This document shows positions 1,555 through 26,527 of a stretch of 40,921 nucleotides of DNA, piece after piece (within the stretch, counting starts at the first letter, position 1; every line of letters begins with the position of its first letter). The notes beneath the pieces were generated by a model. That model searched no databases and was not told where the DNA came from. It saw only the letters and a program-made list of their open reading frames with translations. Source of the DNA: a virus (lineage: Duplodnaviria; Heunggongvirae; Uroviricota; Caudoviricetes); the IMG/VR virus record IMGVR_UViG_2740892440_000004, positions 1-40,921 of that record. The stretch is one strand, 5' to 3'. Made by a program: the position numbers and the translations under genes.

Positions 1555-1647
1555 GGTGCTGTAATTGGTTGAAATATTTATTCTAATGTCTGGTTCAACT
1601 TTCCTTAGCTGCCTGAAAGTTTTTTTGATCTTACCCATCAATAATAG

Positions 1648-1708: not shown

Positions 1709-1870
1709 AACCGTGGCAGGAGGTCCGGACTGAAAAAACTGCTCAGGACATTATCGGCGGTGGACGCACGGGTAGTCTGTAAACCGAACCGACTGGGGCG
1801 CAGTATGTGGCATCTTGTCGTGCTGTTGGAGGAGCTGTGCAAACGTGGTATTAACTTTCGTGCTCTGGCC
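1709..1870 (+). pseudogene. serine recombinase (Pin/Hin/Gin invertase family) internal fragment
   Basis: translation GLKKLLRTLSAVDARVVCKPNRLGRSMWHLVVLLEELCKRGINFRAL matches the central conserved region of DNA invertases (..GDTLVVWKLDRLGRS..LxxELxxRGIxFRSL); N-terminal catalytic Ser region and C-terminal HTH absent. Confidence 0.55.
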
Positions 1871-2276
1871 CAATCTATATTTGCCCAACAATGGGGGGAC
1901 GAATGCTGTAAAAGTAAAAGAATCTGCGATCTCAAAGTTATTGTGTGATTTTTATGTGAGCAGAAGATATTCATCAGAAACGATTATGTAAATCATTTTA
2001 TTTTGCCGACGACCTGATTGTCGAAAGAAAAGAATACCCCCGTATTCCCTGAATAGATTGACTTTTTTATCCAACCATACTTCAGCGCACTGCGTTTAAA
2101 AAATGCTTCTTTCTTATGTGGAATATCATCATTTCATCATGATGTCTTTGATGAGCGGTGAACACAATACACTTGCGCTGTCTCTTCAGGATGAATCCCC
2201 TGGTCTGGTGCCTGTGGCTGATGTTGCAGCAGAGCTAAGGTCGCTTAAACGCTACTCAGTATTCACTTTTCAGAGG

Positions 2277-5200: not shown

Positions 5201-5541
5201 ATTTATCCAATGGCATGGAATCGAAATCAGTCGATACCCGCAGTTTATATCGTGAACTGGGTGCAACGCTGAGTTACAACATGCGTCTGGGGAACGGTAT
5301 GGAAGTTGAGCCGTGGCTGAAGGCGGCTGTGCGCAAAGAATTTGTCGATGATAACCGGGTGAAAGTGAATAGTGACGGTAATTTCGTCAATGATTTGTCG
5401 GGCAGACGTGGAATATACCAGGCAGGTATTAAAGCCTCATTCAGCAGTACGTTAAGCGGGCATCTTGGGGTGGGGTATAGCCATGGTGCCGGTGTGGAAT
5501 CCCCGTGGAACGGGGTAGCTGGTGTGAACTGGTCGTTCTGA
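2277..5541 (+). pseudogene. AIDA-I-type autotransporter adhesin, interrupted by a frameshift near 5170-5183
   Basis: RBS plus ATG at 2277; signal-peptide-like N-terminus; approx. 900 aa of degenerate GG-x-Q-x-V-x-GG / T-T-I-x-GG beta-helical repeats; C-terminal ...GVNWSF ending in aromatic residue typical of OM beta-barrels; passenger frame stops at 5186 and continues in +1 frame (ORF 5215-5541). Confidence 0.7.
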
Positions 5542-5702
5542 CCATCAACGAAAAAGCCACATCTGTGGGCTTTCATGTCACCAGGAGCCGCGGCTCCTTT
5601 GCGTATCCTTTTATGTCTCTTCACCGTCTGGTCGGTGTCCTGCTGAGACTGCTAACTTCCTGTTTTTATTGGTGTTGTCCTTATACCGTCCAATCATGAT
5701 TG

Positions 5703-5720
5703 GCTGGCGGAGTCTGAATT
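5703..5720. repeat. degenerate att-like repeat (gctggcggagtctgaatt); copy 2, probable distal boundary of the P4-like element
   Basis: near-identical to 1537-1554 and related to the tmRNA 3' end fragment at 18123-18167. Confidence 0.3.
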
Positions 5721-5878
5721 TGTATGTTATATCTATGTTTTAATTGGTTATTTATTTAAGTTGTTTTTGTTTGTATACCTAAGCGTATACCAATAGCGGG
5801 GTGCAATACTTATTGAACTTTAAAAAAATCACGCTAAATAGGTCTTCTATATTCAAAAAAACTCTTTTTTCAATAAAT

Positions 5879-5957
5879 TGTTCACACTGTTCACTTTGGA
5901 TTTTTACCATTCAAAATCAAGGAAATAGAAGTTAACTGTACGGTGAAGAGTGAACAG
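5879..5957. repeat. iteron-like octamer cluster (TGTTCACA, TGTTCACT, GGTGAAGA, GTGAACAG), possible P4 crr/ori-like alpha-binding region
   Basis: four copies of a TGTTCAC-type octamer in both orientations within 80 bp immediately beyond the 3' end of the alpha gene; recalled P4 ori/crr iteron is TGTTCACC. Confidence 0.35.
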
Positions 5958-5980
5958 ATAACTCTACATTCTTGTGCCAG

Positions 5981-6010
5981 CAAAAATAAAACCCGGCATC
6001 AGCCGGGTTA
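5981..6010 (-). terminator. rho-independent terminator downstream of the alpha operon
   Basis: perfect hairpin acccggc-atca-gccgggt followed on the minus strand by a T-run (plus-strand A-run 5982-5990). Confidence 0.5.
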
Positions 6011-6017
6011 GTTGTAA

Positions 6018-8351
6018 TTATTTGATTGTTGGCTCATCGCACTTGGGTAGCCAGTCTGCATTACTTTCCTCTTTTAAAGTGAGGTTAGTCTGCATTCCCT
6101 GATTAGTTCGCCGTTTCTCATAATGTAGCCCGTACTCCTTCAGCATGACTGGCAACCCTTTGCCAAACATCGTAAGACTCAGGGTGTTTTTATATCCATT
6201 AGCCTCCATGTATACGAGGTAGGCATGGTAAAGGTAGGTACGTGGCTGGCGTGGGACAATATTGGCGTTCCCCATAAACATGCCGTTGGTGTCAGGTAAT
6301 GCCTCAAGATAGCCACAAAAATCAAATGCTGGATCAGCATCACGCTTGATGGTGAGAGCCTCATCAGAATTCTGCTGCGACTGAAGCAATGTTCTGGCGC
6401 TCATCGGATCGCTGAAACGCTGCATGAGCTGGCGAACAATCACAGCCAGTTCTCGTGCAATTTTATCTTTCAGCTGCGGATCGCGTTCTTCCGGTGCTAT
6501 CTGCTCAGGAAAATGCAGAATAACTCTCCTGCGGGACACACCACCACTGCGATCAGTGAAGCGCATAGGATTATTATTTACGGCCAGGATAACCGCCGGA
6601 ATATGTGTTGAATAAGCATTCTGATATTTGGGGTCCACCGATACCGCATCGCCACCAGTTATAGCCTTAAGCCCGGCGCCGTCGCCGCTCCACTTCTCCT
6701 GATCAGGCAGGCGAATAAGAGAAAAACCTATCAGAGCCGCACGTTCTCGCGGGGACTCCAGCGTTTCAATGGTCGCAGAGGTGGCGTTATCCTCTCCAGC
6801 AAGCATGGTCGCAATTTCAGCCAGAATACTTTTGCCACTTCCACCAGGGCCAGTCACTTCCAGAAAGAGCTGCCAGTCATAGCGATTCGCCAGCACCATA
6901 AATAACGCCGCAAGAATAATGTCGCGTTTTTCTGGCTTGTGTCCGGCAGCCCGGTCCAGCCAGCGCCAGAATGCCGGGGCATGAGTTTCAAGCGTTTCCC
7001 CCTCTACCGGTGGCGTGAAATCGACTTCACACAGGGTACGCAGCCAGTTCTCTTTACAGTGCGGACTAAACAGCCCTGTTCGCGTATCGAGGACGCCATT
7101 ACGAAAACCGATCAGATGACGTGCCGGATTTTGCTGCTGCGGAACAATTAACTTTAATGTTTCCACCAGTGAAGCAATTTTTCCTGAGGAAAACGGTGCA
7201 CCGAGGCGCTGGAAAAGGGCTGCGACATCTCGGGCAAAATCTGACTGAGAAATCACTTTCCACGCTCCAGACTCGTAGCGGGATAAAAGCTGCCCGTTCG
7301 GATCAACCGCCAGTGCATCCCTGTAATGCTCCCGAACCCTCTGAGCTTTTTCGCTGACACTCATCGCTGTGAATTCTGCTTCACTCATTGTGTCGAAAGG
7401 ACTGGCGTTATGTGGCTTCAAAGCCTCAAGAATTGCCTTCCGGGTGGATTCCTCTCCGTATTGGGTAAGCGCATCATTCCAGTCACCAAAAACCGGTGGC
7501 AGCACAATGTCACACTGACACGCTTTTGCAGCAGTTTCAGCCCTGTTCTGGCCTGAACCATTCAGATCGCGGTCCGCTGCAATAATTAACTGATATCCCG
7601 GATACTTGTTATGGGCAACGCTGGCCAGAGAAAGAAAGTTGACCGACGAAAATGCCACCATGACGGCTTCTCCTGTCAGATGACGAATGGTAAGCGCCGT
7701 GGCGTAACCTTCCGCAATCCACATCCTTCTTACAGAACTCCCGCCCCCTTCTATCAGATGATAGGCCTCCTTAACCTGACCTCCTTTAAGAAAACACTTG
7801 CTACCATTGCCACTGATAAGCTGAATATTCACCAGTTCCCCGTCAGCGTTATAGAGCGGGACGATCAAATCACCGGGGTGGAACATCACCCCACCGGTTT
7901 TATGACCTGAAGTCAGCTCATGGCAAATATGCTCCGGGAAACCTTTATGTGTAAGATAAGTATTTCCGGCAGATTCACGCGAGACTTGCAGTAGTCGCGC
8001 GGCAAGTGCTGCTGCCGCCTGTTTCCCGCCATCTGTATCTGCGGTTGACGTCCAGACTCCAGAAGAGGCTGAAGACAGACTATGTGTCAGTCCATGTATC
8101 CTGTCTGCTGCTTCACTGATATCCACATTCAGTACCTTGCTGACAAGCGCTAAACCGTCCCCAGCCCCGCACTGGTTGCAGAACCATGTTCCACGTCCTT
8201 CCAGATCGTCGAAGCGAAAACGATCTTTACCGGCGCAGACCGGACAAGGCTGATGGCGATTTTTCAGTATGTTCATACCCAGCGCTGGCAAAATCCGCGC
8301 CCAGTGACCGCGGGCAGCCTTCACGGCCTGACTGACTTTCATTCCTGACAT
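6018..8351 (-). CDS. P4 alpha-type primase/helicase (replication protein)
   Basis: Zn-finger primase motif CPVCAGKDRFRFDDLEGRGTWFCNQCGAGDG, Walker A GPGGSGKS; approx. 777 aa; start set at the ATG preceded by GAGGGAG rather than the upstream alternative start in the ORF track. Confidence 0.9.
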   Translation of the reverse strand: MSGMKVSQAVKAARGHWARILPALGMNILKNRHQPCPVCAGKDRFRFDDLEGRGTWFCNQCGAGDGLALVSKVLNVDISEAADRIHGLTHSLSSASSGVWTSTADTDGGKQAAAALAARLLQVSRESAGNTYLTHKGFPEHICHELTSGHKTGGVMFHPGDLIVPLYNADGELVNIQLISGNGSKCFLKGGQVKEAYHLIEGGGSSVRRMWIAEGYATALTIRHLTGEAVMVAFSSVNFLSLASVAHNKYPGYQLIIAADRDLNGSGQNRAETAAKACQCDIVLPPVFGDWNDALTQYGEESTRKAILEALKPHNASPFDTMSEAEFTAMSVSEKAQRVREHYRDALAVDPNGQLLSRYESGAWKVISQSDFARDVAALFQRLGAPFSSGKIASLVETLKLIVPQQQNPARHLIGFRNGVLDTRTGLFSPHCKENWLRTLCEVDFTPPVEGETLETHAPAFWRWLDRAAGHKPEKRDIILAALFMVLANRYDWQLFLEVTGPGGSGKSILAEIATMLAGEDNATSATIETLESPRERAALIGFSLIRLPDQEKWSGDGAGLKAITGGDAVSVDPKYQNAYSTHIPAVILAVNNNPMRFTDRSGGVSRRRVILHFPEQIAPEERDPQLKDKIARELAVIVRQLMQRFSDPMSARTLLQSQQNSDEALTIKRDADPAFDFCGYLEALPDTNGMFMGNANIVPRQPRTYLYHAYLVYMEANGYKNTLSLTMFGKGLPVMLKEYGLHYEKRRTNQGMQTNLTLKEESNADWLPKCDEPTIK

Positions 8352-8365
8352 GATGCAGTTCTCCC

Positions 8366-8689
8366 TCAGTGTAAAACCGGCTTTATAATGTGACGGACGC
8401 ATAACTCATCCATTACGGCTATTCCGAGCTGGGAGAGTGCGGGGCAGGACATTAGAGGACCGGATTCCATCAGGTCTGAAAGCAGGGCGCAGGCGATTTC
8501 CATGCCTTTTGTTTGCCCGTGCTGTCGCAGATAAAAACCTTCAAGCTCACGGGCAATGGCGGTTTCAATTTCATCCAGAGTGAGCTGCAGGTGGCGGTTG
8601 TGCTGATGGCAGATACTCAGCCAGGCGCAGGCAACCGCGCGGCGATATAACGCCAGCCGAAGTGAGAGGGGAAGAGTGCGTGATTTCAT
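8366..8689 (-). CDS. hypothetical protein (107 aa) of the satellite early operon
   Basis: ORF whose start overlaps the upstream stop (ATGA) and whose end overlaps the alpha start. Confidence 0.5.
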
Positions 8690-8913
8690 TGCACCACCTC
8701 CTTGTTCATCAGGTCATCCTGGCAACGCTGTACCACGCCATCAAGCTGTTCTGTCATCAGATAAATCAGGGAAACCAGTTGCTCACATTGAGCACCTGCA
8801 GGTTTTTCATAGCAGTCCTGAAGAACAGCCATTCCGGTGACAAATTCCCCCACGTTACGAAGATGCTTGAGGCGGACAATATCGTCATAAGAAATTGCGG
8901 CGTGATTCATCAC
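8686..8913 (-). CDS. hypothetical protein (75 aa) of the satellite early operon
   Basis: ORF coupled by ATGA overlaps on both sides. Confidence 0.45.
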
Positions 8914-9101
8914 ATCACCTCCCCGGCAGGCAGCCGTGCAGAAAGGGAGAGCACATAATCACGGACCAGCGAAAGGCGTGCAAAGCGCTCATCGCAGGCC
9001 ACGGTGCGAAGCATACAGATGCGGGGTTGAGTGTCAGCACGGCGGATTGCGGCAAGCACAAAGACATATTGCGGGTAAAACGGGGTGAGGGTTGTAGCCA
9101 T
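8910..9101 (-). CDS. hypothetical small protein (approx. 63 aa); the longer 183-aa ORF in the track is probably not real
   Basis: GGAGG upstream of an internal ATG; the long version would span a terminator-like hairpin at 9308-9333. Confidence 0.3.
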
Positions 9102-9307
9102 GATGGCAGCCTCCATTGAGTAGCGGTTATTGCTACCACCGGAAACGCCAATTTCACTGGTGGCAGCCCGAACGGGGTTGGCGTAACCGGCCTCAATGGA
9201 TACCGGCCAGCCCGAAGGCTGCCCCGCCCGGACTGCCATTATCTCGAAAGAACCACGGTGTACGCATAAACACCACAGCCTGGAAAATGGGTGTGCCAGA
9301 GCTTCGA

Positions 9308-9333
9308 CGAAAAAAAAGACGCTTGGCGCGTCT
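9308..9333 (-). terminator. rho-independent terminator downstream of the alpA-like gene
   Basis: hairpin agacgc-ttggc-gcgtct followed on the minus strand by an 8-T run. Confidence 0.4.
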
Positions 9334-9460
9334 GGTGTCGCCATTGAGTTTCGCGGAACGCCAATTCCGGCTGCCGATTTTGCGGCAGCGGAAAAACTAT
9401 ACCTGGAAATGACTGCAGGATGCAAGCCAGAAAAATGGGGATTAATGCGTTCAGGCATCA

Positions 9461-9721
9461 TTATGCATCACATCCCCGTCCGCGGGCACTTATACGATCC
9501 GCCATCCATGCGCTTACCTCTGACTGTGCCCAGGCAACATTTTTACCACCAAGTGGGATCTGCTTCGGGAAAGCATCGCGGCTTATCAGGTCGTATATAG
9601 TTGAGCGGGACAAGCCGCATAAATGCATCACCTCGGGAAGACGTAAAAATCGCTCATGCTGGTTCAGCACAGGAAATAATGGCGCAGCCGGAGCTGGCGC
9701 AGAAACAGAAATATCATGCAT
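9461..9721 (-). CDS. alpA: AlpA-family prophage transcriptional regulator / excisionase-like DNA-binding protein
   Basis: 86 aa with HTH segment [39 protein letters not shown] characteristic of AlpA/Vis-type regulators of P4-like elements. Confidence 0.75.
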
Positions 9722-10283
9722 TTATCTACCCTCTTTAATTCCTTCATCAGTCCGGATAAATCCCCCCGGATTCAGGTAGTTCCTTATTATGTATATATTT
9801 CTCGCTTACGCACCCATTATTTATTTAGCGTCACATATTGATTTAATGGAATTTAAAACTATATCAAACCACATAAAATGGCATGATAGATATTATGTCT
9901 GCGAACTATAAATACAGGGACATTAATAGGAACTAACTTTCATCCAGGGGTTACTACCCCATAAGTCATAGAACTTAATGGTACTGAAACCGCAACCCAT
10001 TCAGCAGGGATGCACAATTTCTACATATGGCTTTACATTGCAAACCTAACTTCAGGATATACTCATGAATTGCATCAAGCTCAGAAGAATTAGAACCGCA
10101 TAAAATCAATAACCACGCATTCTTAACCTAAAAATATATCCAAATAAATTCATAAAAGACCGAGCAGTTCTAGTTTTATAAAAATCAGATTGAAATGCAA
10201 CACCAGGGAAAGGGGGGAATCATGTTATTTCCCGGCAAAGAAAAATCGTCTATTTCATCATCTGTTGAATACTACTGAAGAGT

Positions 10284-10480
10284 GGTGAATAGTTGTGAGG
10301 AACAATAATGAAATAATCATTCGGAATAAAAATTTCACTTTTGATGAAAAAAAATCATAAATCACGCTACCTTCCGATGAACACTCATGAACAGTCACTG
10401 AATACTGCCTTGTCAACCCTTCACCTCTTAACTAGCTGTATTATCAATTTTTTTATCAAAGTGAACAGTAGTGAATAGTA
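10284..10480. repeat. second iteron-like cluster (GGTGAATA, ATGAACAG, GGTGAAGG, GTGAACAG, GTGAATAG) in an AT-rich non-coding region; possible ori-like site
   Basis: at least five TGAAC/TA-type octamers in a 200-bp ORF-free segment about 4.4 kb from the cluster at 5879-5957. Confidence 0.3.
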
Positions 10481-10544
10481 TTTATTAAAGGAAAGTTGAA
10501 GATCAGACATGACACATTTCTCTGGCTAGCCAGAACAAGGTCAT

Positions 10545-10562
10545 TGTTCTGTCACTGACACA
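10545..10562 (+). promoter_or_regulatory. TGT-N12-ACA element (Ogr/Delta-dependent late promoter motif) upstream of the sid-like operon
   Basis: TGTTCTGTCACTGACACA about 75-90 bp upstream of the sid-like start, matching the P2/P4 late-activator site consensus. Confidence 0.5.
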
Positions 10563-10702
10563 ATCCCCCTCGGTAGTGCGCTTGTATGGGCATCGGCACA
10601 ATTGACACGACAACAAAACACTACCGGAGCATTCATGACTACTGTTAACCAGATCTCTGATGCAAACATTACATCCTCCCTCCCGCCGAAAATTCGCGAA
10701 GC

Positions 10703-11386
10703 GTGGAAAACGTTAAGGCAGCAAAAGCTGTCTGGCAGGAAGAACGGCGAAAACAAACTGAAGCTGCTGCAATGATTGAAACTATCCGTAAACGTCAGGA
10801 AGATACAAAAACGGAAACGCAGGCGCTTAATGATGAATGGCGAAACCTGTTTCGTGAGAATCAGGGAAATATGACACCACGCATGAAAAAACTGCGGGCA
10901 GAAATCGCCCTCGGACGCGAAACACTGGATGAGTTCGAAGATTTGCTGGCAGCTCAGGTGGCAGAAAATGAATTCCTGCCCTGGAAAACTGCGGATGCTG
11001 CAAACCACTACATCAGCGAACATAATCGCCTGATTGAAACTCATGCAGTGTGGCTCTGGAATGAGTTTATGAAGGAACACGGCCAGAAACTTATTCAGAT
11101 CCTTGGACTGTTGAAAATGACTCTGGGCCGAAGCGCTTCTGCTGTTATCGGTGTAGTTCATACCGTAAACGACCCCGAAAGTGTGCTGAAGCAATTTATC
11201 AGCGAGCAACTCACCACTCCGGCACTGTCCTGTAACGTATCTTCAACGGATGATATTACCCTGCCGGGGATCAGCATTTATGCGGACGATAAAGCCATCC
11301 AGGATGCCAGACAATCCCCCAGCCCTGCAGCGCGTTCACGGATGCTTAAACAGCGTGACATGGTTAAAGGGGGCGAGAAGAAATGA
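10703..11386 (+). CDS. putative Sid-like capsid size-determination (external scaffold) protein; probably starts at ATG 10635 with a frameshift near 10705
   Basis: first gene of a +strand operon followed by psu and delta; coiled-coil-like Glu/Arg/Ala-rich sequence; ATG 10635 has a GGAG RBS and reads into this frame if one base is restored. Confidence 0.45.
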   Translation: MENVKAAKAVWQEERRKQTEAAAMIETIRKRQEDTKTETQALNDEWRNLFRENQGNMTPRMKKLRAEIALGRETLDEFEDLLAAQVAENEFLPWKTADAANHYISEHNRLIETHAVWLWNEFMKEHGQKLIQILGLLKMTLGRSASAVIGVVHTVNDPESVLKQFISEQLTTPALSCNVSSTDDITLPGISIYADDKAIQDARQSPSPAARSRMLKQRDMVKGGEKK

Positions 11387-11937
11387 ATGCCGGAACCATT
11401 ACTCAGGAAGCTCTCAACGATTACCGCTCGGCGATAAAAAGCTGGCTGACACTACGTAATACGCAAAGTACCTACCAGCTTCGTCTGGCGGCTCTGCTGA
11501 ATACTGAAGAAAAACCGGCAGCATATGCCAGCCAGCTTGAGGAGCTTCGTGAGCGTCTTGCTGTCCTCGAATGGCAGATTAACTGTGCTGCACGGGATGG
11601 TCTTTATGCTCACCAGATTGTGCTGGAGAGTTGTGTTACAAGCGCAACGGAAAACTTCATGAGCGAGCATGGTGATGCACTCACTGACGCACTGGCTCCT
11701 TTTCTTTGCGCTCCATACGGGCTTGAGGCGGCAATGAAAATATTACGAACCGCTGTAGCCCGACAAACGGAAGTGCGTACTCCGGTAATTTCAGCAGCAT
11801 ACAAGAGCATTATCGACGAAACCGGATTAACGGTGGATGCATCAATGTACGCTGATGCTTCAACCAGTTTCACCCCGGCACAACATAAAGTTTTCCTGGC
11901 CCGCCTTAACCGACTTAATGAAAAAGGAGGGTACTGA
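11383..11937 (+). CDS. psu: Psu-like polarity suppression (capsid decoration) protein
   Basis: 184 aa; ATGA overlap with upstream gene; segments ...MSEHGDALTDALAPF... and ...FTPAQHKVF... resemble P4 Psu as recalled. Confidence 0.7.
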   Translation: MNAGTITQEALNDYRSAIKSWLTLRNTQSTYQLRLAALLNTEEKPAAYASQLEELRERLAVLEWQINCAARDGLYAHQIVLESCVTSATENFMSEHGDALTDALAPFLCAPYGLEAAMKILRTAVARQTEVRTPVISAAYKSIIDETGLTVDASMYADASTSFTPAQHKVFLARLNRLNEKGGY

Positions 11938-11938
11938 T

Positions 11939-12211
11939 ATGGCCCTGAAGTGTCCTGAATGTGGGACGGTCGCTCACGCCAGAACCAGCGCCTATGAAGC
12001 TCCATCGGTTAAACGCTCATGGTATCAGTGCCAGAATCTGGAATGTTCCTGCACATTTACCGCTCTGGAAAGCGTGGATACGATAATTATGAAGCCTTGG
12101 CGCAATGAACAGGAATCAGACAAAGAACAAATGCCAGAAAAACAACAGCAAACTCTCAACCGCTATGGCTCCGCGTCAAAGCTGTCAAGCCGTCAGCTAA
12201 TTCCTGTCTGA
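11939..12211 (+). CDS. Delta/Ogr-family zinc-finger late-gene activator
   Basis: MALKCPECGTVAHARTSAYEAPSVKRSWYQCQNLECSCTF matches the Ogr/Delta C-x2-C...C-x4-C pattern (CPxCxxxAHARTS...YxQCxN). Confidence 0.8.
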   Translation: MALKCPECGTVAHARTSAYEAPSVKRSWYQCQNLECSCTFTALESVDTIIMKPWRNEQESDKEQMPEKQQQTLNRYGSASKLSSRQLIPV

Positions 12212-12234
12212 TTAGCAAAATACGCCCACGTAGT

Positions 12235-12259
12235 CCCGGTCCAGTACCGGGATTTTTTA
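12235..12259 (+). terminator. rho-independent terminator after delta
   Basis: hairpin cccggt-ccagt-accggg followed by ATTTTTT. Confidence 0.55.
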
Positions 12260-12289
12260 CGCCTTTTCCCTGGCTGGCCTGAAGGCGTA

Positions 12290-12445
12290 TGAGTGCATAT
12301 CTATAGCGCATGAAAACGCATGAGTCTCATGCGCCATTTTTGACGCGAAAGCCCTTGTGTGGTGGCTTCTGAGACGATTTACGGGGTGCATGAAAACCAG
12401 TCTGTTAAGCGAAGCGGGCAGGCGGGCGGGGCAGCGCACGCTGTG
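12290..12445. other. cos-like packaging site of the P4-like satellite (candidate)
   Basis: approx. 150-bp non-coding block homologous to 26830-26990 (shared ggtgcatgaaaacca and aagcgggcaggcg); core GGCGGGCGGGGCAGCGCAC at 12421-12439 resembles the recalled P2/P4 cohesive end GGCGAGGCGGGGAAAGCAC. Confidence 0.4.
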
Positions 12446-12636
12446 TATGGTCAAAGTAACTTTTAACTTTCAATGAGTACCTGATTGAAAGAATCGTTTA
12501 TCACGTTAAAGCGATAACAATGATTTTAAGCAGCGAGTGTGGTGTAAGTATCATTGTCGAGTAAAAATGTTGCAAGCTATTGAAATAAGTATATATTGCA
12601 AATGATGAGGAAAATAAAATATGCAAGGACCTACTC

Positions 12637-13578
12637 ATGGATGCACTGCATGTCGCGCTTGAAAATCTGATTAGAGATGATGGTCAAACACTAAATAGTT
12701 ATTTTAGTGAAGTTAAAGTTAATTCATTGATTGAAAATACAAATGCAACTTGTCATTTTCATTGCCTTAATCTTGATGGCAATGGACGTCCTCGGGTAGA
12801 CGCGTTAATCCAATTCTTGAACGATAAAGTAGTTGATTATGCTATTCCAAGGAAAAAAATCAATGAGGCAGTGCAATATTTTAATGAAACACAATCAACA
12901 GCGAAAATAACAAAATTAGCAAATCAAGCAAAAAAATTATTTACTAGGCTTGCAAATAGTGGCGAAGGCGGTGAATTTATTCTTTTTTTATTTGCAGAGC
13001 AATTCCTTAGATTTCCACAAATTATTTGCAAAATGAGCCTGAAAACGAGTTCTCAAATGCATTACCATGGTGCAGATGGAATACATATAGGCGTAGATAA
13101 AGATAATAAAAAATTATGTTTATACTGGGGCGAGTCTAAACTCTATTCCAATCTGAGCAAAGGTATTTCTGAGTGTATGGATAGTATAGCTCCATTACTT
13201 CAAAGTTCTATGGGAATAGAAGGCGCTGAGACACGTGATATGCAGTTGCTGGAGTCGCACTTAAATGTTGATGATATAGAACTAGAACAAGCGTTGAAAA
13301 GATTCTTAGATCCTGATAGCCCGGATTTTAATAAATTGGAATACAGAGGAATATGCTTAGTTGGGTTTGATCTTAAAGATTATCCACAAGGGCCCAGTTC
13401 AATTGATATCAGTGAACTAGTTGCTTTGATTAATACTAAAGTCGGGAAATGGTCAACTAGTGTGCAAGGTGGTATAGTTAATAAAAAACTTGATCGCTTT
13501 GCTATGCATGTTTTTATTCTTCCTTTTCCTTCAGTAAAAGCATTTAGGGCTAGTTTAATTAAAGCATTGGAGAGTTGA
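12637..13578 (+). CDS. cargo protein 1 (313 aa) with a PD-(D/E)xK-like nuclease motif; candidate defence effector
   Basis: low-GC ORF; segment HGADGIHIGVDKDNKKLCLYWGESK has D...D...ExK spacing typical of PD-(D/E)xK nucleases. Confidence 0.6.
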   Translation: MDALHVALENLIRDDGQTLNSYFSEVKVNSLIENTNATCHFHCLNLDGNGRPRVDALIQFLNDKVVDYAIPRKKINEAVQYFNETQSTAKITKLANQAKKLFTRLANSGEGGEFILFLFAEQFLRFPQIICKMSLKTSSQMHYHGADGIHIGVDKDNKKLCLYWGESKLYSNLSKGISECMDSIAPLLQSSMGIEGAETRDMQLLESHLNVDDIELEQALKRFLDPDSPDFNKLEYRGICLVGFDLKDYPQGPSSIDISELVALINTKVGKWSTSVQGGIVNKKLDRFAMHVFILPFPSVKAFRASLIKALES

Positions 13579-13579
13579 A

Positions 13580-15514
13580 ATGTCGTTGCGAGATTTATCT
13601 GGGTGGTTGATTAAGAATCAAGGATTCTTAAGAAAATATCAGGCATTAGTCGCTAACTCGATAAAAGATCAATTTCCAGAGTTAAAATCAGATGTAATCC
13701 CACAGATTAGTTCTGAGGATGTCGGCTATCTTTTAACATGTGCTAGTTCTTTGGCTTTCTCAAGTGATGAGAAATGCCAAGATGCAGCCTTAAGGATTGC
13801 ACAGTATTGCTTATTGAATGAAAAAAGTGAAGCAAGAAAAGATAGTGCTGCATTAATTCTTGATTCATTATCTAATAATCCAGCAATACAACTTGCTGAA
13901 AATAGGGGGTATCTTAACCCTGATTTCGAAGAAAGATTACCCTTAAAGGCTCAGTTAGAACTAACTAAAAGAAAAATTCTATATACAATTGAAATAGATG
14001 CTGATAAGCATATTTATGCTAATAGGTTTCAATCAGAGTTTTGGGATGCGGTACAAGAAAACTCATGGGTTAGTGTCTCTGCTCCTACCTCTGTAGGAAA
14101 ATCATTTATCCTGGAATCTTGGGTGGAGCAGTTTGTAAAAAGAAATAAGAATTGCTTAGTTATTTATATCGTACCAACAAGGGCATTGATTTCAGAAGTA
14201 TATTCTGAGTTGCAAAAACGTTTGGATCCTAATTTAACAAATATAGTTAATATTCAGACACTACCATTGAGTAATGTATACCAGAGCGAAAAATCTAATG
14301 TCTTCATATTTACACAGGAAAGATTAAATTTATTCTACAATCATTTCTCACAAATTCCAAAGATAGACGTCTTAGTTGTTGATGAAGCACACAAGATCGG
14401 TGATGGTGGAAGAGGTGTTATTCTTCAACATGTAATTGAACTGACTTGTCTAAATAACCCTGATTCAAAAGTTATCTTTGCAAGTCCTTTCACCTTAAAT
14501 CCTGAAATATTGCTCAGTGATGCTCCAATATTAAAAAACAAAAGAACTATAAAAAGTGACTATGTTACAGTTAATCAAAATTTAATATGGGTAGAACAAA
14601 AACCACGCAAGACCAAAGATTGGTTGATGTATTATTTTGCAAACGGTGAAAAACGCGAGTTAGGAAACTTTTCTTTAGAAAATGCACCATCTCCTGAAAG
14701 TAAAAGATTGCCTTTTGTAGCTCTTTGTTTAGGTAAGGGGGCTTCTGGTAACGTAGTTTACGTAAATGGAGCCGCTGAAGCAGAATCTACTTCCAAGCTA
14801 ATATCTGCAAGTATAGAAAATGAGACTGAGGATGAAGAAATTTTAGCTCTCGTTGAGCTTAGTGAGACAATTATACATAAAAATTTCGCATTAAATCGCA
14901 CTCTAAAAAAGAGAGTCGCTTTTCATTATGGCAACATGCCTTTAATAATAAAGGGCGAGATTGAACGATTGTTTAGTAAAGGTAAGATTGATTTTTTAAT
15001 TTGTACCTCAACTTTAGTTGAGGGCGTAAACATGGCTTGTAAAAATATTTTTATAAGAGGCCCTAAAAAGGGTAATTCAACCCCGATGCGAGAAGAGGAT
15101 TTTTGGAATCTTGCTGGCAGAGCTGGTCGTTGGGGAAAAGAATTCCAAGGTAATGTCATCTGCATCGATAGCGACAATGAAAAAATTTGGAATGGAGAGC
15201 CTCCAAAAACCAAAAAAAATATATTTATAACTCGCGCCACGGATGCTATTTCCCATGACATGGATAAGTTGGTTTCCTATATTTTTTCAGAGCATCATTT
15301 TGGTATGTCTGAGCGGAATCCTAATCTCCAGAGTCTATTTAGTTATTTATGTTCATCATTTTATTTTTATAATGGCTTGGATAATAATCCTTACATGGAA
15401 AAGTACAATATAAAAAATATCGATGTTTTAAATGAAGCAATATTTGATGTTTTTGATTCTTTAACTTTTCCACACGAATTGGTTGTGCGGCATCCTGGTA
15501 TAAGCCGCTTTTAA
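13580..15514 (+). CDS. cargo protein 2: superfamily-2 DEAH-box helicase (644 aa)
   Basis: motif I APTSVGKS, motif II VVDEAHKI, motif V TSTLVEGVN, motif VI NLAGRAGRWG; starts 2 bp after gene 1. Confidence 0.8.
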   Translation: MSLRDLSGWLIKNQGFLRKYQALVANSIKDQFPELKSDVIPQISSEDVGYLLTCASSLAFSSDEKCQDAALRIAQYCLLNEKSEARKDSAALILDSLSNNPAIQLAENRGYLNPDFEERLPLKAQLELTKRKILYTIEIDADKHIYANRFQSEFWDAVQENSWVSVSAPTSVGKSFILESWVEQFVKRNKNCLVIYIVPTRALISEVYSELQKRLDPNLTNIVNIQTLPLSNVYQSEKSNVFIFTQERLNLFYNHFSQIPKIDVLVVDEAHKIGDGGRGVILQHVIELTCLNNPDSKVIFASPFTLNPEILLSDAPILKNKRTIKSDYVTVNQNLIWVEQKPRKTKDWLMYYFANGEKRELGNFSLENAPSPESKRLPFVALCLGKGASGNVVYVNGAAEAESTSKLISASIENETEDEEILALVELSETIIHKNFALNRTLKKRVAFHYGNMPLIIKGEIERLFSKGKIDFLICTSTLVEGVNMACKNIFIRGPKKGNSTPMREEDFWNLAGRAGRWGKEFQGNVICIDSDNEKIWNGEPPKTKKNIFITRATDAISHDMDKLVSYIFSEHHFGMSERNPNLQSLFSYLCSSFYFYNGLDNNPYMEKYNIKNIDVLNEAIFDVFDSLTFPHELVVRHPGISRF

Positions 15515-16161
15515 TGCAAAACCTTTGGGATAGATTTTCGCGGGATACAAACAAACCTGTAGAGAGATTACTGCTTTCTGAACCTGGTAGTAATGATGCG
15601 TTAGATTCATATGTATCCGCATTCTCTAGAATTAGTGATACTCTGAGTAAGAAGCTAGGTTATAATTCAAAAGGAGCTTACGTACAGGCCTTGTTAGTTT
15701 CCAAGTGGATGAAAGGTTATCCCCTAGCAAGATTGATCTCGGATAGAATAAGATATAACAAAAAGAAAAATATTGTTTTCAAAGAAGCGACTTTAATACG
15801 AGGGGTTATGAAGGATGTTGAAGAGATCGCTCGCTATCAAGCTCCAAGGCTTTTAGGATGTTATAATGATTTATTAAAAAGCTTTTATCTTTCGATAGAT
15901 CGCACAGACTTAGCAAAAGATGTTGAAGATATCGGTGTTTATTTAGAACTGGGTGTAAGTTTAAAAACTCAGATTTCACTAATAGGGCTTGGCTTTTCAA
16001 GAACTGCTGCTGTAATGATTTCAGAGCTTATTCCTAATGATAGTTTAGATGAGGAAGAATGCATTAATTGGATTAAGGACAATAAAGTTGACATGGAAGA
16101 ACTGCCACAATTAGTTCAAAACGAAATACATAATATATTTCGTAACTTTTGGGTACAATAG
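15514..16161 (+). CDS. cargo protein 3 (215 aa), unknown function; coupled to the helicase by TAATG overlap
   Basis: low-GC ORF immediately following the helicase in a different frame. Confidence 0.6.
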   Translation: MQNLWDRFSRDTNKPVERLLLSEPGSNDALDSYVSAFSRISDTLSKKLGYNSKGAYVQALLVSKWMKGYPLARLISDRIRYNKKKNIVFKEATLIRGVMKDVEEIARYQAPRLLGCYNDLLKSFYLSIDRTDLAKDVEDIGVYLELGVSLKTQISLIGLGFSRTAAVMISELIPNDSLDEEECINWIKDNKVDMEELPQLVQNEIHNIFRNFWVQ

Positions 16162-16192
16162 TCTTATTTAGACGATTTTTTAAACAATCAAT

Positions 16193-16240
16193 AGAGAAGT
16201 TTTTGAATTTTATCATTCTTCCAGTAACAAAAACTTCTCT
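16193..16240. terminator. long-loop hairpin between convergent cargo genes (possible bidirectional terminator)
   Basis: 12-bp inverted repeat agagaagttttt / aaaaacttctct separated by 24 nt, flanked by T-runs. Confidence 0.3.
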
Positions 16241-16253
16241 TTTATAACACCGC

Positions 16254-16711
16254 TCAGGCTATTCCAGAATAGGCTTTGCTTACTTCACTATGCCTTGTGC
16301 CGCAATGCCTCAAAATAACAAGGCCATGTTGCAGTAACGCCTCACTACGTTCAGGTTCAAACCATTTCCCGTTAAATTTTCCTCCGTGAAAAAGATTGTT
16401 TCTTACACGGCGGATTAACAAAAAAAGAAATTTTGCTAAATCTTTTTCTTGTGGTAAAGAATCATCCAAACTAAAGAGTCATCTTCTATGATTTGTTTTT
16501 TGGGTGGGTGTTCTTTAAAGTAGGTGATAGCAGCAATTAGCTCTGGATCAGTTGTGTTATTTATGATTTCAGAAACTTGCTTTGCATACTCATCCCAGTT
16601 CGCTTTAGCATCTTTTATTTTATGATGAAGTCCACATGCCTTAAGGCAATATTCATAACGTGAAAACTCTCTAAAGAATTCATAACATAAATTATCTAGA
16701 TTATTCTCCAT
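16254..16711 (-). pseudogene. HEPN-like small protein (Rx4H motif), split into two ORFs by an apparent 1-bp G-run contraction
   Basis: ORFs 16436-16711 and 16254-16469 overlap; restoring one G in tttgg-atg fuses them into approx. 160 aa; C-terminal part contains IRRVRNNLFHGG, i.e. R-x4-H as in HEPN RNase motifs. Confidence 0.45.
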
Positions 16712-16740
16712 GAACTATATCTCCATGTATAACAAGTTAA

Positions 16741-17940
16741 CTAATATTGATTGCGCTCGTACACTTTTTGGCCCCACCAATTCATAAGTCCTATTCGTTG
16801 CTCAAGGTAAGTTGAACGATTATATGCTCTGCGCACTTCATTTTTATCACTATGTGCAAGAGCAGCCTCAATTACATCTGCATTAAAACCCGCTTCATTT
16901 AATGCGGTGCTGGCAATTGAACGCAATCCATGAGCAACCAATCTACCACCAAATCCAATCCTTTTTAAAGCAGCATTTGCCGTCTGGCTATTCATTGGTT
17001 GCTTTGGGTCATTCCGACTCGGGAAAACATGTTCACGATGGGCACTGATTAGCTTCATCACATCAAGAATCTCTAATGCCTGAGGAGATAGAGGGACTAT
17101 GTGTTCCCGCTTAGCCTTCATTCGTTCAGCTGGGATAGTCCAGAGCTTTGCATCGAGATCGAGCTCAGCCCACCTAGCACCGGAAGCCTCAGAAGGACGA
17201 ACTAGAGTCAGGAGTTGCCACTCAATGAGGCAGCGAGTCGGAACAGACAAATTTGACATGACGAGAGAACGCATCAGCATAGGCAATTCTTCTGGGCGCA
17301 ACGTAGGCATATTTTGTTTTTTTGGCTTCTCAAAGGCCATTCCAATGCCTGATGCTGGATTGGCATCAATAAGACCAGTATTTACGGCATAAATCATTAT
17401 CTCGTTAACACGCTGCACCAACCGGCGCACCGTCTCCAGCGCCCCACGAGCTTTGATCGGTTCAAGGGCTTCAACCAGTGTTCGGGCTTTGATTTGCTGG
17501 ACAGGGATCTCCCCGATGGTGGGGAATACGTCTTTTTCCAGTGAACGCCATATATCTTTAGCGTAATCATGGGTAACGCTTTTGCTTTTGAGCTGGAACC
17601 AGTTAGCGGCGACCGTCGAAAAAATACTGTCCAGAGCGATTTGCTGCTGTTCCTCTGCAACTTCAGCTTGAATTTGCGGGTCGATTCCGTTGGCTAATAG
17701 GGCAAGGTAATCTGCTCTTAACCCTCGGGCATCAGCAAGAGAAAGGGCAGGAAAAGCACCAAGTCCCATCATAGTCCGCTGTTTTGTTGCTGGGCGTTGA
17801 TAGCGAAAGCGCCAGAGTTTCTTGCCGCTAGTTTTCACTATCAGGAAAAGCCCATCGCCATCATGCAGCGTTAGATCCTTCTCTAACGCTTTCGCGCGCA
17901 GAACTTCGGTGTTGGTCAGGGGGCGTGTTGTCCGTGCCAC
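16741..17940 (-). CDS. int: P4-type tyrosine integrase
   Basis: 399 aa; catalytic segments AHGLRSIASTAL (HxxR) and RAYNRSTY (Tyr); positioned next to the tmRNA-derived att fragment. Confidence 0.9.
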   Translation of the reverse strand: MARTTRPLTNTEVLRAKALEKDLTLHDGDGLFLIVKTSGKKLWRFRYQRPATKQRTMMGLGAFPALSLADARGLRADYLALLANGIDPQIQAEVAEEQQQIALDSIFSTVAANWFQLKSKSVTHDYAKDIWRSLEKDVFPTIGEIPVQQIKARTLVEALEPIKARGALETVRRLVQRVNEIMIYAVNTGLIDANPASGIGMAFEKPKKQNMPTLRPEELPMLMRSLVMSNLSVPTRCLIEWQLLTLVRPSEASGARWAELDLDAKLWTIPAERMKAKREHIVPLSPQALEILDVMKLISAHREHVFPSRNDPKQPMNSQTANAALKRIGFGGRLVAHGLRSIASTALNEAGFNADVIEAALAHSDKNEVRRAYNRSTYLEQRIGLMNWWGQKVYERNQY

Positions 17941-18050
17941 TGTGGCCGCTCCTTCATGAATTGGTATACGCTTTTAGGTATACATCCTACCGTATACCGA
18001 AACGTATACCAATAATCATCGGATTTAGCCGGATGTTCTCGGACAACGAC

Positions 18051-18088
18051 AAACACAAAAAAGCCCGCAGCTTGTGCCATGCGGGCTT
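18051..18088 (-). terminator. rho-independent terminator between the att fragment and the satellite integrase
   Basis: 9-bp stem aagcccgca / tgcgggctt with 10-nt loop, followed on the minus strand by TTTTGTGTTT. Confidence 0.4.
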
Positions 18089-18122
18089 TCTGTACTTCAC
18101 CGGACGTATCCGGATCATTATT

Positions 18123-18167
18123 TGGTGGAGCTGGCGGGAGTTGAACCCGCGTCCGAAATTCCTACAT
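18123..18167 (-). other. 45-nt copy of the tmRNA (ssrA) 3' end: attachment-site junction between the P4-like element and the 186-like prophage, not a complete tmRNA gene
   Basis: reverse complement reads ATGTAGGAATTTCGGACGCGGGTTCAACTCCCGCCAGCTCCACCA, the T-arm/acceptor/CCA end of enterobacterial tmRNA; match stops after 45 nt and upstream sequence is unrelated AT-rich DNA. Confidence 0.8.
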
Positions 18168-18252: not shown

Positions 18253-19314
18253 TTAATCCTCTGCCGCCAAAGTGCCGCCATCATCAACTGTCACCGGTTT
18301 CTCCATTACGTATGCTGACCATTCAGGAGAATAGAATGGTTGCAAAAATTTAGAAAATTGTTCTGTATCAAATTTAATTTCACCAATGTACAAGTAGTTA
18401 TATATATTACTGTAGTTTTGAAGCTGAAATCCGTAAGCTAGTTTTAATATCTTTTTAGATAGATAAAATGCAGCCTCAAGTGATTCGGCTAACATTGATT
18501 CTGTAGGGGTGAACGTTCTTATTTTAGTGCCGTTGATTTTTAACTCTATATAGGCTATCGAGATACAATCTACGCATAAAGTATCTAATAATTTAGCTAT
18601 GTTATATGAAATTGTATTTAATCTGGTAAGGTAATCTTCTGCATTTGAATGGGGTGTAACCTTATCTTTTGATAAGTTATTATTAATGGTATCTAGGATT
18701 GACAATATGCTTTTTTTAAAGTTCTCGTCTGGTGAATAATTGGATGTGATATCCATTGACGATTCTGTATATATATTGGAATATAATAAGTATGGGTTTG
18801 AGATTTTAATTTCATGAGTTGTTAGTATTTTAATTTTGTTGCTATCATTGTAATTATAATATTTTGATGCGTCATCTACAAAGCTTTGCATCGTAAAGCT
18901 TGATATTTCTTTAATTTTATCTACGAAATTTTTCTCATGAGCAAAATGTCTATCGATTGCATTTTTGATTTCAGATGAATTAATTTGTGCTTCGGTTTGT
19001 ATCGTTCTGTGAATGTTATTTACTATGGAAGCTAATGGTACAGAACTTGCGAGTATCAATAATGGGAATTTGCTTATCTCATAGAATCTGGCATATCCGT
19101 GAGCAGAAAGAACAGGTATTTTACCAAACCATGCAAATGCTCCAAAATAAATGAATGACAGCAGTGGTACTGCAATTGAAATCCAAAATAATTTCTGTTG
19201 AAATAAATTTCTTTTATCGAGAATGTACCACTTTTTATATATTGATACAAACGCAAAAAGAATAATTGCCAAAATATACACAATAATTCCAGTAAAGCTA
19301 GTATTAATGTTCAT
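18253..19314 (-). CDS. low-GC membrane protein (353 aa, three N-terminal TM helices plus approx. 250-aa soluble domain); moron co-transcribed with the phage integrase
   Basis: start ATG overlaps the integrase stop (ATGA); hydrophobic segments FTGIIVYILAIILFAFVSIY, LFWISIAVPLLSFIYFGAFAWF, FPLLILASSVPLASIV; AT-rich relative to neighbours. Confidence 0.7.
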   Translation of the reverse strand: MNINTSFTGIIVYILAIILFAFVSIYKKWYILDKRNLFQQKLFWISIAVPLLSFIYFGAFAWFGKIPVLSAHGYARFYEISKFPLLILASSVPLASIVNNIHRTIQTEAQINSSEIKNAIDRHFAHEKNFVDKIKEISSFTMQSFVDDASKYYNYNDSNKIKILTTHEIKISNPYLLYSNIYTESSMDITSNYSPDENFKKSILSILDTINNNLSKDKVTPHSNAEDYLTRLNTISYNIAKLLDTLCVDCISIAYIELKINGTKIRTFTPTESMLAESLEAAFYLSKKILKLAYGFQLQNYSNIYNYLYIGEIKFDTEQFSKFLQPFYSPEWSAYVMEKPVTVDDGGTLAAED

Positions 19315-22684: not shown

Positions 22685-22911
22685 TGGCTGATGCAATGGA
22701 TCTCGTACAGCAGCGCGTTGAAGAAGAACGCCAGCGTCATATCCGTGCTGCCCGTGCCAAAACGCCGGGCGTGTCCCGCGTGCTTTGCATTGAGTGTGAA
22801 GCGCCAATTCCGCCAGCACGCCGCCGTGCCATTCCGGGTGTGCAGCTTTGCATTACCTGTCAGGAAATCGCAGAGCTGAAAGGCAAACATTACAACGGAG
22901 GTGCTGTATGA
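22684..22911 (+). CDS. TraR/DksA-family C4 zinc-finger protein
   Basis: CIECEAPIPPARRRAIPGVQLCITCQE, a C-x2-C...C-x2-C motif typical of phage TraR/DksA-like proteins. Confidence 0.7.
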   Translation: MADAMDLVQQRVEEERQRHIRAARAKTPGVSRVLCIECEAPIPPARRRAIPGVQLCITCQEIAELKGKHYNGGAV

Positions 22912-23765
22912 GCACCATCCTGAAATGGGCGGGAAATAAAACCGCCATTATGTCCGAACTGAAAAAGCATCTTCCTGCTGGCCCGCGACTGGTTGAACCT
23001 TTCGCGGGTTCCTGTGCAGTGATGATGGAGACGGAGTACCCCAGCTATCTTGTTGCGGATATTAATCCTGATTTAATCAACCTCTATAAAAAGGTTGCTG
23101 CTGATTGTGAATCGTTTATATCTCGCGCCAGAGTTTTATTTGAGATCGCAAACAGGGAGGTGGCTTATTACAACATAAGGCAGGAGTTTAATTACTCAAC
23201 TGAAATTACTGATTTCATGAAAGCGGTATATTTCCTGTATCTCAATCGTCACGGTTACCGTGGTTTATGTCGCTATAACAAGAGCGGGCATTTCAACATT
23301 CCCTACGGTAATTATAAAAATCCGTATTTCCCTGAAAAAGAAATTCGCGCATTTGCAGAAAAAGCCCAGCGAGCAACGTTTATCTGCGCCAGCTTTGATG
23401 AAACGCTGGCGATGTTGAAGGCGGGGGATGTGGTGTATTGCGATCCGCCGTATGACGGTACGTTTTCCGGCTATCACACTGATGGTTTCACTGAAGATGA
23501 CCAGTATCACCTGGCATCCGTTCTTGAACATCGGTCATCAGAAGGACATCCGGTCATTGTTTCTAACAGTGACACATCCCTGATCCGTTCGCTGTATCGC
23601 AATTTTACTCACCACTATATCAAGGTAAAACGCAGCATCGGTGTGGCAGCTGGCGAGGGTAAATCAGCAACAGAAATCATTGCTGTTTCCGGGCCGCGCT
23701 GCTGGGTGGGATTTGATTATTCGCGTGGCGTGGATAGTTCTGCCGTGTACGGAGTACGTGCATGA
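22908..23765 (+). CDS. dam: DNA adenine methyltransferase (Dam-like, N6-adenine)
   Basis: N-terminal LKWAGNK...EPFAGSCAV (SAM-binding) and catalytic DPPY ([13 protein letters not shown]). Confidence 0.85.
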
Positions 23766-26517: not shown

Positions 26518-26527
26518 GGTGACTTTT

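Follow-up and report, generated by a model that had tools for sequence, protein, structure and literature searches.

The IMG/VR viral record IMGVR_UViG_2740892440_000004, analyzed over its full 40,921 nucleotides (hereafter the window), consists mostly of two mobile elements: a P4-like satellite (~5.9 kb to 18.1 kb) and, following it, a P2-family prophage that starts at about 18160 and is referred to here as the resident helper. Our subject is a noncoding block of the satellite at 12290-12441, situated between the delta gene and a Hachiman defense system. This block is very probably the cohesive-end (cos) packaging site of a P4-like satellite integrated at ssrA, because it is homologous to the end-junctions of P4, P2, and 186, is placed as the P4 cos is, and has a counterpart in the resident helper that carries the 19-mer annotated as the "putative cos site" of phage SEN8. 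The elements of the two window segments are as follows (cos types A to D are defined below).

12290-12441, + strand: predicted complete cos region of the P4-like satellite ("type D"), which aligns to the helper cos and to the joined ends of P4, P2, and 186
12295-12321, + strand: GCAT three times in the same orientation, beginning at 12295, 12308, and 12318 (13 and 10 nt apart)
12317-12341, + strand: palindrome CGCATGAG-T-CTCATGCG with a T run behind it, making a fourth GCAT in inverted orientation (from a consensus scan and an inverted blastn self-match)
12387-12398, + strand: box TGCATGAAAACC, with which the 55-bp P2-family cos core begins on its left side
12399-12415, + strand: 17-nt spacer AGTCTGTTAAGCGAAGC, in which AAGCG occurs twice, an apparent 5-nt duplication relative to types A-C
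12416-12434, + strand: predicted 19-nt 5' cohesive end GGGCAGGCGGGCGGGGCAG, in the position-based register, ungapped as in P4, P2, 186, and the helper
12435-12441, + strand: right flank CGCACGC (6/7 against CGCGCGC of P4), the end of the conserved core and the edge of the variable defense hotspot
26843-26991, + strand: helper cos region of Fels-2/Felsduovirus type ("type C"), with GCAT at 26843, 26856, and 26866 and the box at 26937-26948
26966-26984, + strand: predicted helper cohesive end GGCGTGGCGGGGATACGAG, followed by the flank CGCGCGA at 26985-26991

Alignment of the satellite block with the helper cos region

The original prediction, made from the letters of the window, held that the block downstream of delta aligns with positions 26830-26990 of the prophage. 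The two segments are indeed collinear: local alignment of 12290-12445 with 26830-26990 scored 45 (z = 11.7), against a mean of 16.8, a standard deviation of 2.4, and a maximum of 27 among 1,000 dinucleotide-preserving shuffles. In a MAFFT alignment of 12270-12460 with 26815-27000, mean column identity was 75% and was concentrated in blocks. When the block was searched against the whole window with blastn, the helper segment was its only significant non-self match, the two best hits being collinear (26840-26871 and 26935-26977). The window contains two copies of the composite motif GCATKAAAACC-N8-AAGYG and no more (+ strand, 12388 and 26938); 100 shuffles produced none. Both strings that had been quoted as shared are found at both places (ggtgcatgaaaacca at 12385-12399 and 26935-26949; aagcgggcaggcg at 12412-12424 and 26957-26969), and an Ogr/Delta zinc-finger gene does lie directly upstream of the block, at about 11939-12211. 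The proposed core GGCGGGCGGGGCAGCGCAC (12421-12439) resembles the P2/P4 cohesive end GGCGAGGCGGGGAAAGCAC at 13 of 19 positions ungapped, and the satellite and helper cores differ as had been stated, with 10 of 19 positions identical in either register.

The helper cos region is 84-99% identical to those of Fels-2, RE-2010, SopEPhi, SEN8, and P2-like phages of Klebsiella and Escherichia. The record of SEN8, a Felsduovirus, ends at the base matching 26965 and opens with GGCGTGGCGGGGATACGAG, which is annotated there as a "putative cos site". Just past the third GCAT, the helper site contains a direct repeat, GATCGTTT-N4-GATCGTTT (26870-26889), with GATC at 26870 and 26882. Of 58 unique type C helper sites, at least 49 have this GATC pair at the same distances from the box (-68 and -57), and neither GATC occurs in any satellite or in type A or type B helpers; methylation-dependent control of helper packaging is a possibility. 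An inverted repeat in the spacer of P4, 186, and the helper was considered as a general cos element and rejected, since significant folding is confined to type C helpers (mean z = -3.2), with satellites and type A giving values of ~0. The spacer hairpin of type C helpers looks like a terminator. On the chromosome, the two cos sites (12388 and 26938) share an orientation and lie 14.55 kb apart, with Hachiman, the satellite int, a copy of the ssrA attachment (att) site, and the helper early region between them.

A layout shared with P4, P2, and 186

The P4 (NC_001609), P2 (NC_001895), and 186 (NC_001317) records are linear, and those of P2 and 186 annotate their ends as cohesive ends. When the two ends of each record were connected and the resulting junctions compared with both window segments by alignment, the block proved to be homologous to the junctions element by element, in keeping with the cos assignment of the original prediction. 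All five sequences share one layout: three GCAT, a ~60-nt spacer, the box TGCAT(T/G)AAAACC, 17 nt containing AAG(C/T)G, a G-rich 19-mer that is the cohesive end in the reference records, and a (C/T)GCGCGC flank. The distance from box to cohesive end is likewise 17 nt in P4, P2, and 186. From box to flank the layout spans 55 bp, which agrees with the "55-bp core" of P2-family cos that two later papers attribute to Ziermann and Calendar 1990 (PMC5694545; PMC9594776). Ungapped, the satellite core matches the P4, P2, and 186 junctions at 33-36 of 55 positions (box, 11-12/12; flank, 5-6/7), so that the homology typical of P2/P4-family cos cores is present at fixed spacing. The satellite box agrees with the helper at 12 of 12 positions and with each of P4, P2, and 186 at 11 of 12, and it is invariant in 30 unique type D loci. 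The three-GCAT array at a fixed distance from the box, a feature taken from the present comparison and not from a published definition, is also there, with a 2-nt offset.

P4 is the nearest described counterpart. Its cos occupies the same place, with the late operon on one side and the variable region and int on the other, and has the same parts (three GCAT, the TGCATKAAAACC box, a 17-nt AAGCG spacer, a G-rich 19-mer, and a CGCGCGC flank), with 36 of 55 core positions identical ungapped. The P4 19-mer is that of P2, whereas the satellite core equals no helper core found. The satellite GCAT cluster matches that of P4 at 21 of 35 positions but that of the Fels-2-type helper at 27 of 35, and the satellite array lies 2 nt nearer the box. 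The late genes differ as well, P4 having the order sid-delta-psu with a delta of 166 aa and the window satellite the order sid-psu-delta with a single-domain delta. P2 and 186 share the homologous core, the upstream GCAT array, and an accessory or defense hotspot beside cos (PMC9122126). They depart from the satellite in their 19-mers (GGCGAGGCGGGGAAAGCAC and GGCGTGGCGGGGAAAGCAT, respectively, matching GGGCAGGCGGGCGGGGCAG at 12/19 and 11/19), in a box with T in place of the satellite's G (TGCATTAAAACC), and in their terminases, which share only about 47% (M) and 62% (P) identity with the type C helper proteins.

Both window sites lie where a cos site of their element is expected. In the satellite, delta ends at 12211, cos spans 12290-12441, HamA starts at 12637, and int spans 16741-17940; in the helper, the order is DinI/tum (26456-26761), cos (26843-26991), hotspot (27132-29005), and portal (29036-30063). 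A cos site beside a variable defense hotspot has been described for P4-like satellites and for P2-like phages (PMC9122126; PMC8628076).

Conservation was measured over 30 unique type D sequences, from satellites of several genera whose alpha proteins are as little as about 36% identical. Up to 12441 it stays within 0.75-1.0 in each 10-nt bin (0.94-1.0 for box and spacer), and past that position it drops to ~0.3. In conservation, the noncoding block equals or exceeds the delta coding sequence. BLAST homology among Escherichia coli genomes likewise stops at 12441. This profile shows purifying selection on the block, with a sharp boundary at 12441. Rfam has no family in the block; its only matches in the satellite are C4 and isrK, elsewhere in the element.

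Cos types and terminase lineages

An IMG/VR scan with the general motif gave at least 120 loci and a second scan with the type D pattern gave 39. Loci were classified by tblastn with marker proteins of P2, 186, P4, and the window, and four types of 19-mer were distinguished.

Type A: GGCGAGGCGGGGAAAGCAC; P2-like helpers and some satellites
Type B: GGCGTGGCGGGGAAAGCAT; 186-like helpers and some satellites
Type C: GGCGTGGCGGGG(A/C/G/T)TACGAG; Fels-2-like helpers, including the resident prophage, and some satellites
Type D: GGGCAGGCG...; satellites only, among the loci sampled

Among helpers, cos type goes together with terminase lineage. In type A helpers, M is 98% and P 97% identical to the P2 proteins; type B helpers are closest to 186, with a 186-like M; and in type C helpers, identity to the window proteins is 89% for M and 94% for P (47% and 62% to P2).

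Type D adjoins a satellite delta gene in every classifiable IMG/VR locus and in six species-representative genomes, which include Scandinavium, two Citrobacter, Pseudocitrobacter, and Enterobacter soli. Most type D sites lie directly downstream of a homologue of the window satellite's own delta. The six genomes were those with a box upstream among 103 matches of an 18-nt type D pattern to GTDB representatives; the other 97 are chance matches in GC-rich genomes. Searching 12200-12640 against 50,697 phage records with BLAST returned nothing at E <= 1e-5, and a short, relaxed query gave weak matches (75-79%) to cos cores of Fels-2-type and Burkholderia P2-like phages. In complete E. coli genomes, the 152-nt satellite block was found in 847 of 5,426 (about 16%), including O157:H7 EDL933, and the type C helper block in 1,277 of the 5,426. 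Strains C2 and 2011C-3911 carry both blocks among the matches listed, an observation with no statistic attached. We found no description of the type D variant in the literature searched. The kind of element is already known, and the site is a widespread sequence variant that, among the loci sampled, was found only in satellites.

Register of the cohesive end

The original prediction placed the cohesive core at 12421-12439, a register that stems from a gapped alignment pairing GGGCA/GGCG with the helper. This core is probably out of register, and the 19-nt end is probably 12416-12434. The latter is favored because the box-to-flank distance is identical in all types, because related satellites show the canonical flank in that register (...AAGCGAAGC GGGCAGGCG(G/T)G(C/G)GGGGC(A/T)G, then CGCGCGC), and because conservation and BLAST homology both stop at 12441, the end of the CGCACGC flank. 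Relative to the helper core, the satellite has an apparent 5-nt duplication of AAGCG offset by deletions of 1 nt and 4 nt, and the distance from the box to CGCRCGC is therefore unchanged. P2-like phages of Burkholderia-type hosts (Burkholderia phage vB_SR7, locus L005, and locus L040) have a cos core consisting of the box, ...GTTAAGCGAAGT, CCGCAGGCGGGGAGGGGAC, and CGCGCAA. Since they share the AAGCGAAG spacer form with type D satellites, this form may be ancestral rather than a recent duplication.

A functional cos nicked elsewhere than at the position-based register is the less likely arrangement, though of the alternatives considered it deserves the most weight. The cohesive end could then be 12421-12439, or it could be only 14 nt long (12421-12434); in the shorter version, the local sequence GGGCA^GGCG would determine the left nick and the ^CGCRCGC flank the right one. 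Once it is moved by 5 nt and a single gap is allowed, the type D core fits GGCGTGGCGGGG of the helper almost perfectly in its left part (GGCG-GGCGGGG), and 12421-12439 scores marginally higher against P2/P4 (13/19) than 12416-12434 does (12/19). However, the shifted register would put the conserved CGCRCGC inside the overhang and the bottom-strand nick 2 nt from nonconserved hotspot DNA, and both the 17-nt distance from box to end and the arrangement of 19-mer plus flank are invariant in P4, P2, 186, and type C helpers.

Recognition side and candidate helpers

On its recognition side, the satellite site follows type C. Over the upstream 138 nt, the mean identity of type D satellites is 0.61 when compared with type C helpers, against 0.46 for types A and B; for P4-type satellites the value against the type D upstream region is 0.37, which amounts to no resemblance. 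The 35-nt GCAT cluster matches the resident helper at 27 positions and P2, 186, and P4 at 18-21. GCAT positions are fixed relative to the box in every cos type: measured from the GCAT of the box, they are -93/-80/-70 in type D and most commonly -95/-82/-72 in types A, B, and C (135 unique sites), in helpers and satellites alike. We presume that the array is what the terminase, through its small subunit, recognizes. The Felsduovirus sites (Fels-2, RE-2010, SopEPhi, and SEN8) are accordingly closest to the satellite in box (12/12), in GCAT cluster (27/35), and in having an equal total core length. They differ from it in the core, where the satellite has the AAGCG duplication and a shortened 3' part (10/19), and in the two GATC sites and strong spacer hairpin, both of which the satellite site lacks.

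Because the recognition side of the satellite is of the Fels-2/Felsduovirus type, Fels-2-type phages, rather than P2 or 186, are probably the natural helpers of this satellite lineage. Compatibility with the resident helper class had earlier been called uncertain on account of the differing cores. With such phages as natural helpers, that doubt would apply to the cleavage core (10/19) only, since on the recognition side the GCAT array and box follow the helper type. Given that the array and box resemble Fels-2-type cos and that helper cos types track terminase lineages, compatibility appears likelier than was first held.

Five type D satellites carry a portal gene between cos and the integrase (L134, L155, L156, and L159 from IMG/VR, and L248 from a GTDB genome). 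These genes are apparently full-length, lie in the helper orientation, and have 82% nucleotide identity to Q of the window helper and about 60% protein identity to P2 Q; the open reading frame (ORF) was checked and is intact (392 aa) in L159 only, at 7324-8502. A helper-like portal to the right of cos in these five indicates DNA exchange with type C helpers on the cos-proximal side.

Several points weigh against the cos assignment and the packaging it implies. The satellite core matches the resident helper at 10 of 19 positions and P2/P4 at 12 of 19, and it is unlike every helper core seen. The type D core occurs in no P2-like phage among the 50,697 phage records, the IMG/VR matches listed, or the GTDB representative genomes. 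The distance from array to box is 2 nt shorter in type D than in all other types, and the role given to the GCAT repeats comes from their conservation. In the literature we found no report of virion ends, cleavage, or transduction for any type D site. Finally, were the single-base deletions in the helper portal, int, and A genes (described below) real, the resident helper could package nothing. As for the core, the P2-P4 paradigm has a satellite 19-mer identical or nearly identical to that of the helper, and here the agreement is 10 of 19. The P4 19-mer is that of P2 and differs from that of 186 at two positions, and 186 is reported to be a P4 helper. Satellite-helper identity of the 19-mer is therefore typical and not strictly defining.

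Proposed packaging of the satellite

If the block is a cos site, the satellite would excise and replicate as a circle, and the terminase of a P2-family helper, composed of a gpM-like small and a gpP-like large subunit, would recognize the left part of the site. For the resident helper, the small subunit (product of 33881-34531) would bind the phased GCAT array and the TGCATGAAAACC box. The large subunit (product of 30060-31826), the enzyme expected to cut both cos sites, would nick the two strands 19 nt apart, beginning 17 nt past the box, in the G-rich segment. The linear product would begin at 12416, take in Hachiman, int, the att junction, alpha, and the late genes in that order, and end at 12415. 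Packaging would most likely be into Sid-remodeled small capsids, as described for P4-type satellites (PMC8628076). In the next host, the single-stranded ends would re-anneal.

P2-type terminase reportedly uses monomeric circles, a result that goes by the names of Pruss and Calendar (1978) and Bowden and Modrich (1985). The lambda cos (cosQ-cosN-cosB) has a nicking site flanked on one side by a repeat array that binds the small terminase subunit, yields 12-nt ends, and is packaged from concatemers; its likeness to the satellite site is a functional analogy only, with no sequence relationship. The same holds for cos-packaged phage-inducible chromosomal islands (PICIs) and Staphylococcus aureus pathogenicity islands (SaPIs) of the SaPIbov5 kind, which are also terminase-less satellites carrying a packaging signal of their helper but belong to an unrelated sequence family and use other helper phages (PMC6893505).

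How type D arose is a more speculative matter. One scenario, which we regard as unlikely, is that type D is a satellite-only derivative of a Fels-2-type cos in which the AAGCG duplication displaced the core and deletions restored the spacing. The helper recognition array would have been kept, and the ends, through a new 19-mer or a 14-nt overhang, would be unable to anneal to those of any helper. If this were true, the type D core could be adaptive and might prevent satellite-helper end joining and heteroconcatemers or improve competition for terminase. A satellite without the conserved type C GATC pair might also escape methylation-dependent packaging control, those helpers encoding a Dam-class methylase.

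Other roles for the block

A role mainly as a homology anchor or recombination site for swapping defense cassettes in the hotspot, rather than in packaging, seems improbable. The variable region begins exactly at 12442, some type D satellites have captured a helper portal gene to the right of cos, and Rousset et al. propose cos-associated recombination at P4- and P2-type hotspots (PMC9122126), all of which would suit such a role. It leaves unexplained, however, the internal layout shared with phages of annotated ends, namely the phased GCAT, the box, the fixed spacings, and the flank. The anchor and cos roles are compatible, and exchange is better seen as a consequence of cos.

Less probable still is that the P4-like island is domesticated or cryptic and has lost packaging, in which case the site would be a relic cos whose core diverged through decay. 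Cryptic P4-like islands are known at ssrA (CP4-57), where this satellite also sits, and the core unlike all helper cores found and the lack of a detected P4 epsilon homologue fit decay. Against this, the block is conserved as well as neighboring coding DNA or better across 30 unique sequences from several genera, with a sharp edge at the end of the core; compensating indels keep the total box-to-flank spacing; the satellite gene set looks intact; and the block is found in 847 of 5,426 E. coli genomes.

A chiefly transcriptional element, whether the sid-psu-delta terminator or an insulator before the hotspot, is very unlikely: the terminator-like palindrome with its T run at 12317-12341, which is partly conserved in the type D consensus, and the strong hairpin with a T run in the helper at 26897-26920 point that way, but another hairpin and T run right after delta (about 12235-12258) already looks like the operon terminator, the spacer hairpin is significant in type C helpers and not in satellites or type A/B helpers, and the box and core, the most conserved parts, have no terminator features, nor does the block have an Rfam match.

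The satellite and its integration site

The cos assignment returns us to the element as a whole, whose other features are listed here (strand given where recorded).

6018-8402, - strand: alpha primase, 74% identical to P4 alpha
Listed between alpha and C4: DUF5375 gene
9156-9243: C4 antisense RNA (Rfam, 84.6 bits)
9312-9389: isrK RNA (Rfam, 76.7 bits)
10703-11386: sid
11383-11937: psu
About 11939-12211: delta, a single-domain Ogr/Delta zinc-finger gene (Pfam PF04606, E = 3e-16; same annotation in strain 190)
12637-13578: HamA of Hachiman (PADLOC, E = 1e-135)
13580-16161: HamB of Hachiman, in two ORFs (PADLOC; N-terminal, E = 1e-262; C-terminal, E = 6e-72)
16741-17940, - strand: P4-type integrase

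By tblastn, P4 proteins match in the satellite at alpha (74%), orf106, the cI region, orf88, psu, delta, and int, and Pfam matches comprise Psu (twice), Ogr_Delta, primase domains, and the integrase. The core components of a P4-like satellite are all present (alpha, alpA/orf88, the cI RNA (C4), sid, psu, delta, and a P4-type integrase), and the gene set is apparently intact; the same tblastn search with P4 proteins detected no homologue of P4 epsilon in the satellite. The late operon (10703-12211) is ordered sid-psu-delta, with a short delta (about 90 aa) of single Ogr-like form. The hotspot cargo is the Hachiman system at 12637-16161.

Positions 1-18159 of the window are 99.9% identical to the chromosome of E. 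coli strain 190. Positions 18123-18166 are an exact reverse complement of what we take to be the 3' end of ssrA (transfer-messenger RNA, tmRNA), and this copy sits where the integrase side of the satellite meets the P2-family prophage. Its place at that junction suggests tandem integration of satellite and helper prophage at ssrA. Strain 190 has a different, lambdoid prophage following this position. In the window, ARAGORN detected neither a tRNA nor a complete tmRNA. The left att of the satellite was sought as a repeat of the ssrA 3' end, but none was found; the longest repeat was a 12-mer, which may be an arm-type site of the integrase. From gene positions, the excised satellite would be roughly 12 kb, against 11.6 kb for P4, a figure that is only an estimate.

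The resident helper and sequence quality

The helper prophage contributes the following features.

18253-19314, - strand: ORF of 353 aa without a Pfam match, between the att junction and the helper integrase
Listed first in the prophage, which starts at about 18160: int, 186-like cI, apl, and cII
22848-23765: Dam-class (D12) adenine methyltransferase gene
Listed after the methylase: replication gene A
26456-26761: DinI/Tum-like gene
27132-29005: hotspot of three co-oriented genes (231, 215, and 173 aa)
29036-30063: portal (Q)
30060-31826, - strand: terminase large subunit, P2 gpP homologue (Pfam Terminase_6N, Terminase_6C, and Terminase_5; 63% identical to P2 P)
Listed between the genes of the two terminase subunits: scaffold and capsid genes
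33881-34531, + strand: terminase small subunit, P2 gpM homologue (Pfam Phage_term_smal, E = 3e-40)
Listed after the terminase small subunit: tail genes

The terminase small subunit is only 45-49% identical to P2 M and 186 R. The 353-aa ORF may be cargo at the prophage end. The three hotspot genes have no Pfam or PADLOC match and also occur in strain CV839-06, where they are annotated as hypothetical proteins; they are a candidate for an uncharacterized defense cassette.

Relative to near-identical genomes, for the helper a 98.8%-identical prophage of strain CV839-06, the window has single-base deletions in int (20153), A (25362), and the portal gene (29439), with a further one at 35617. A break at 15514 divides HamB into ORFs of 644 and 215 aa, where strain 190 has one gene of 860 aa. 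These deletions are probably assembly errors, since most fall in short base runs. Both cos blocks, satellite and helper, are 100% identical to several complete genomes.

Significance

Finding a cos site here was to be expected, because a P4-like satellite needs one and its position beside the hotspot is already published. The interest is modest and lies with specialists in phage packaging and in the specificity between satellites and helpers. Because cos types partition with terminase lineages, a satellite cos is informative on helper class, and satellite sites can thus be read for the class of helper able to mobilize them together with their defense cargo, here Hachiman. Since type D is widespread, yet its cleavage core is seen in none of the phages sampled, the site is a convenient natural experiment on two questions: which portion of a P2-family cos is read by the terminase, and whether distance or local sequence determines where it nicks.

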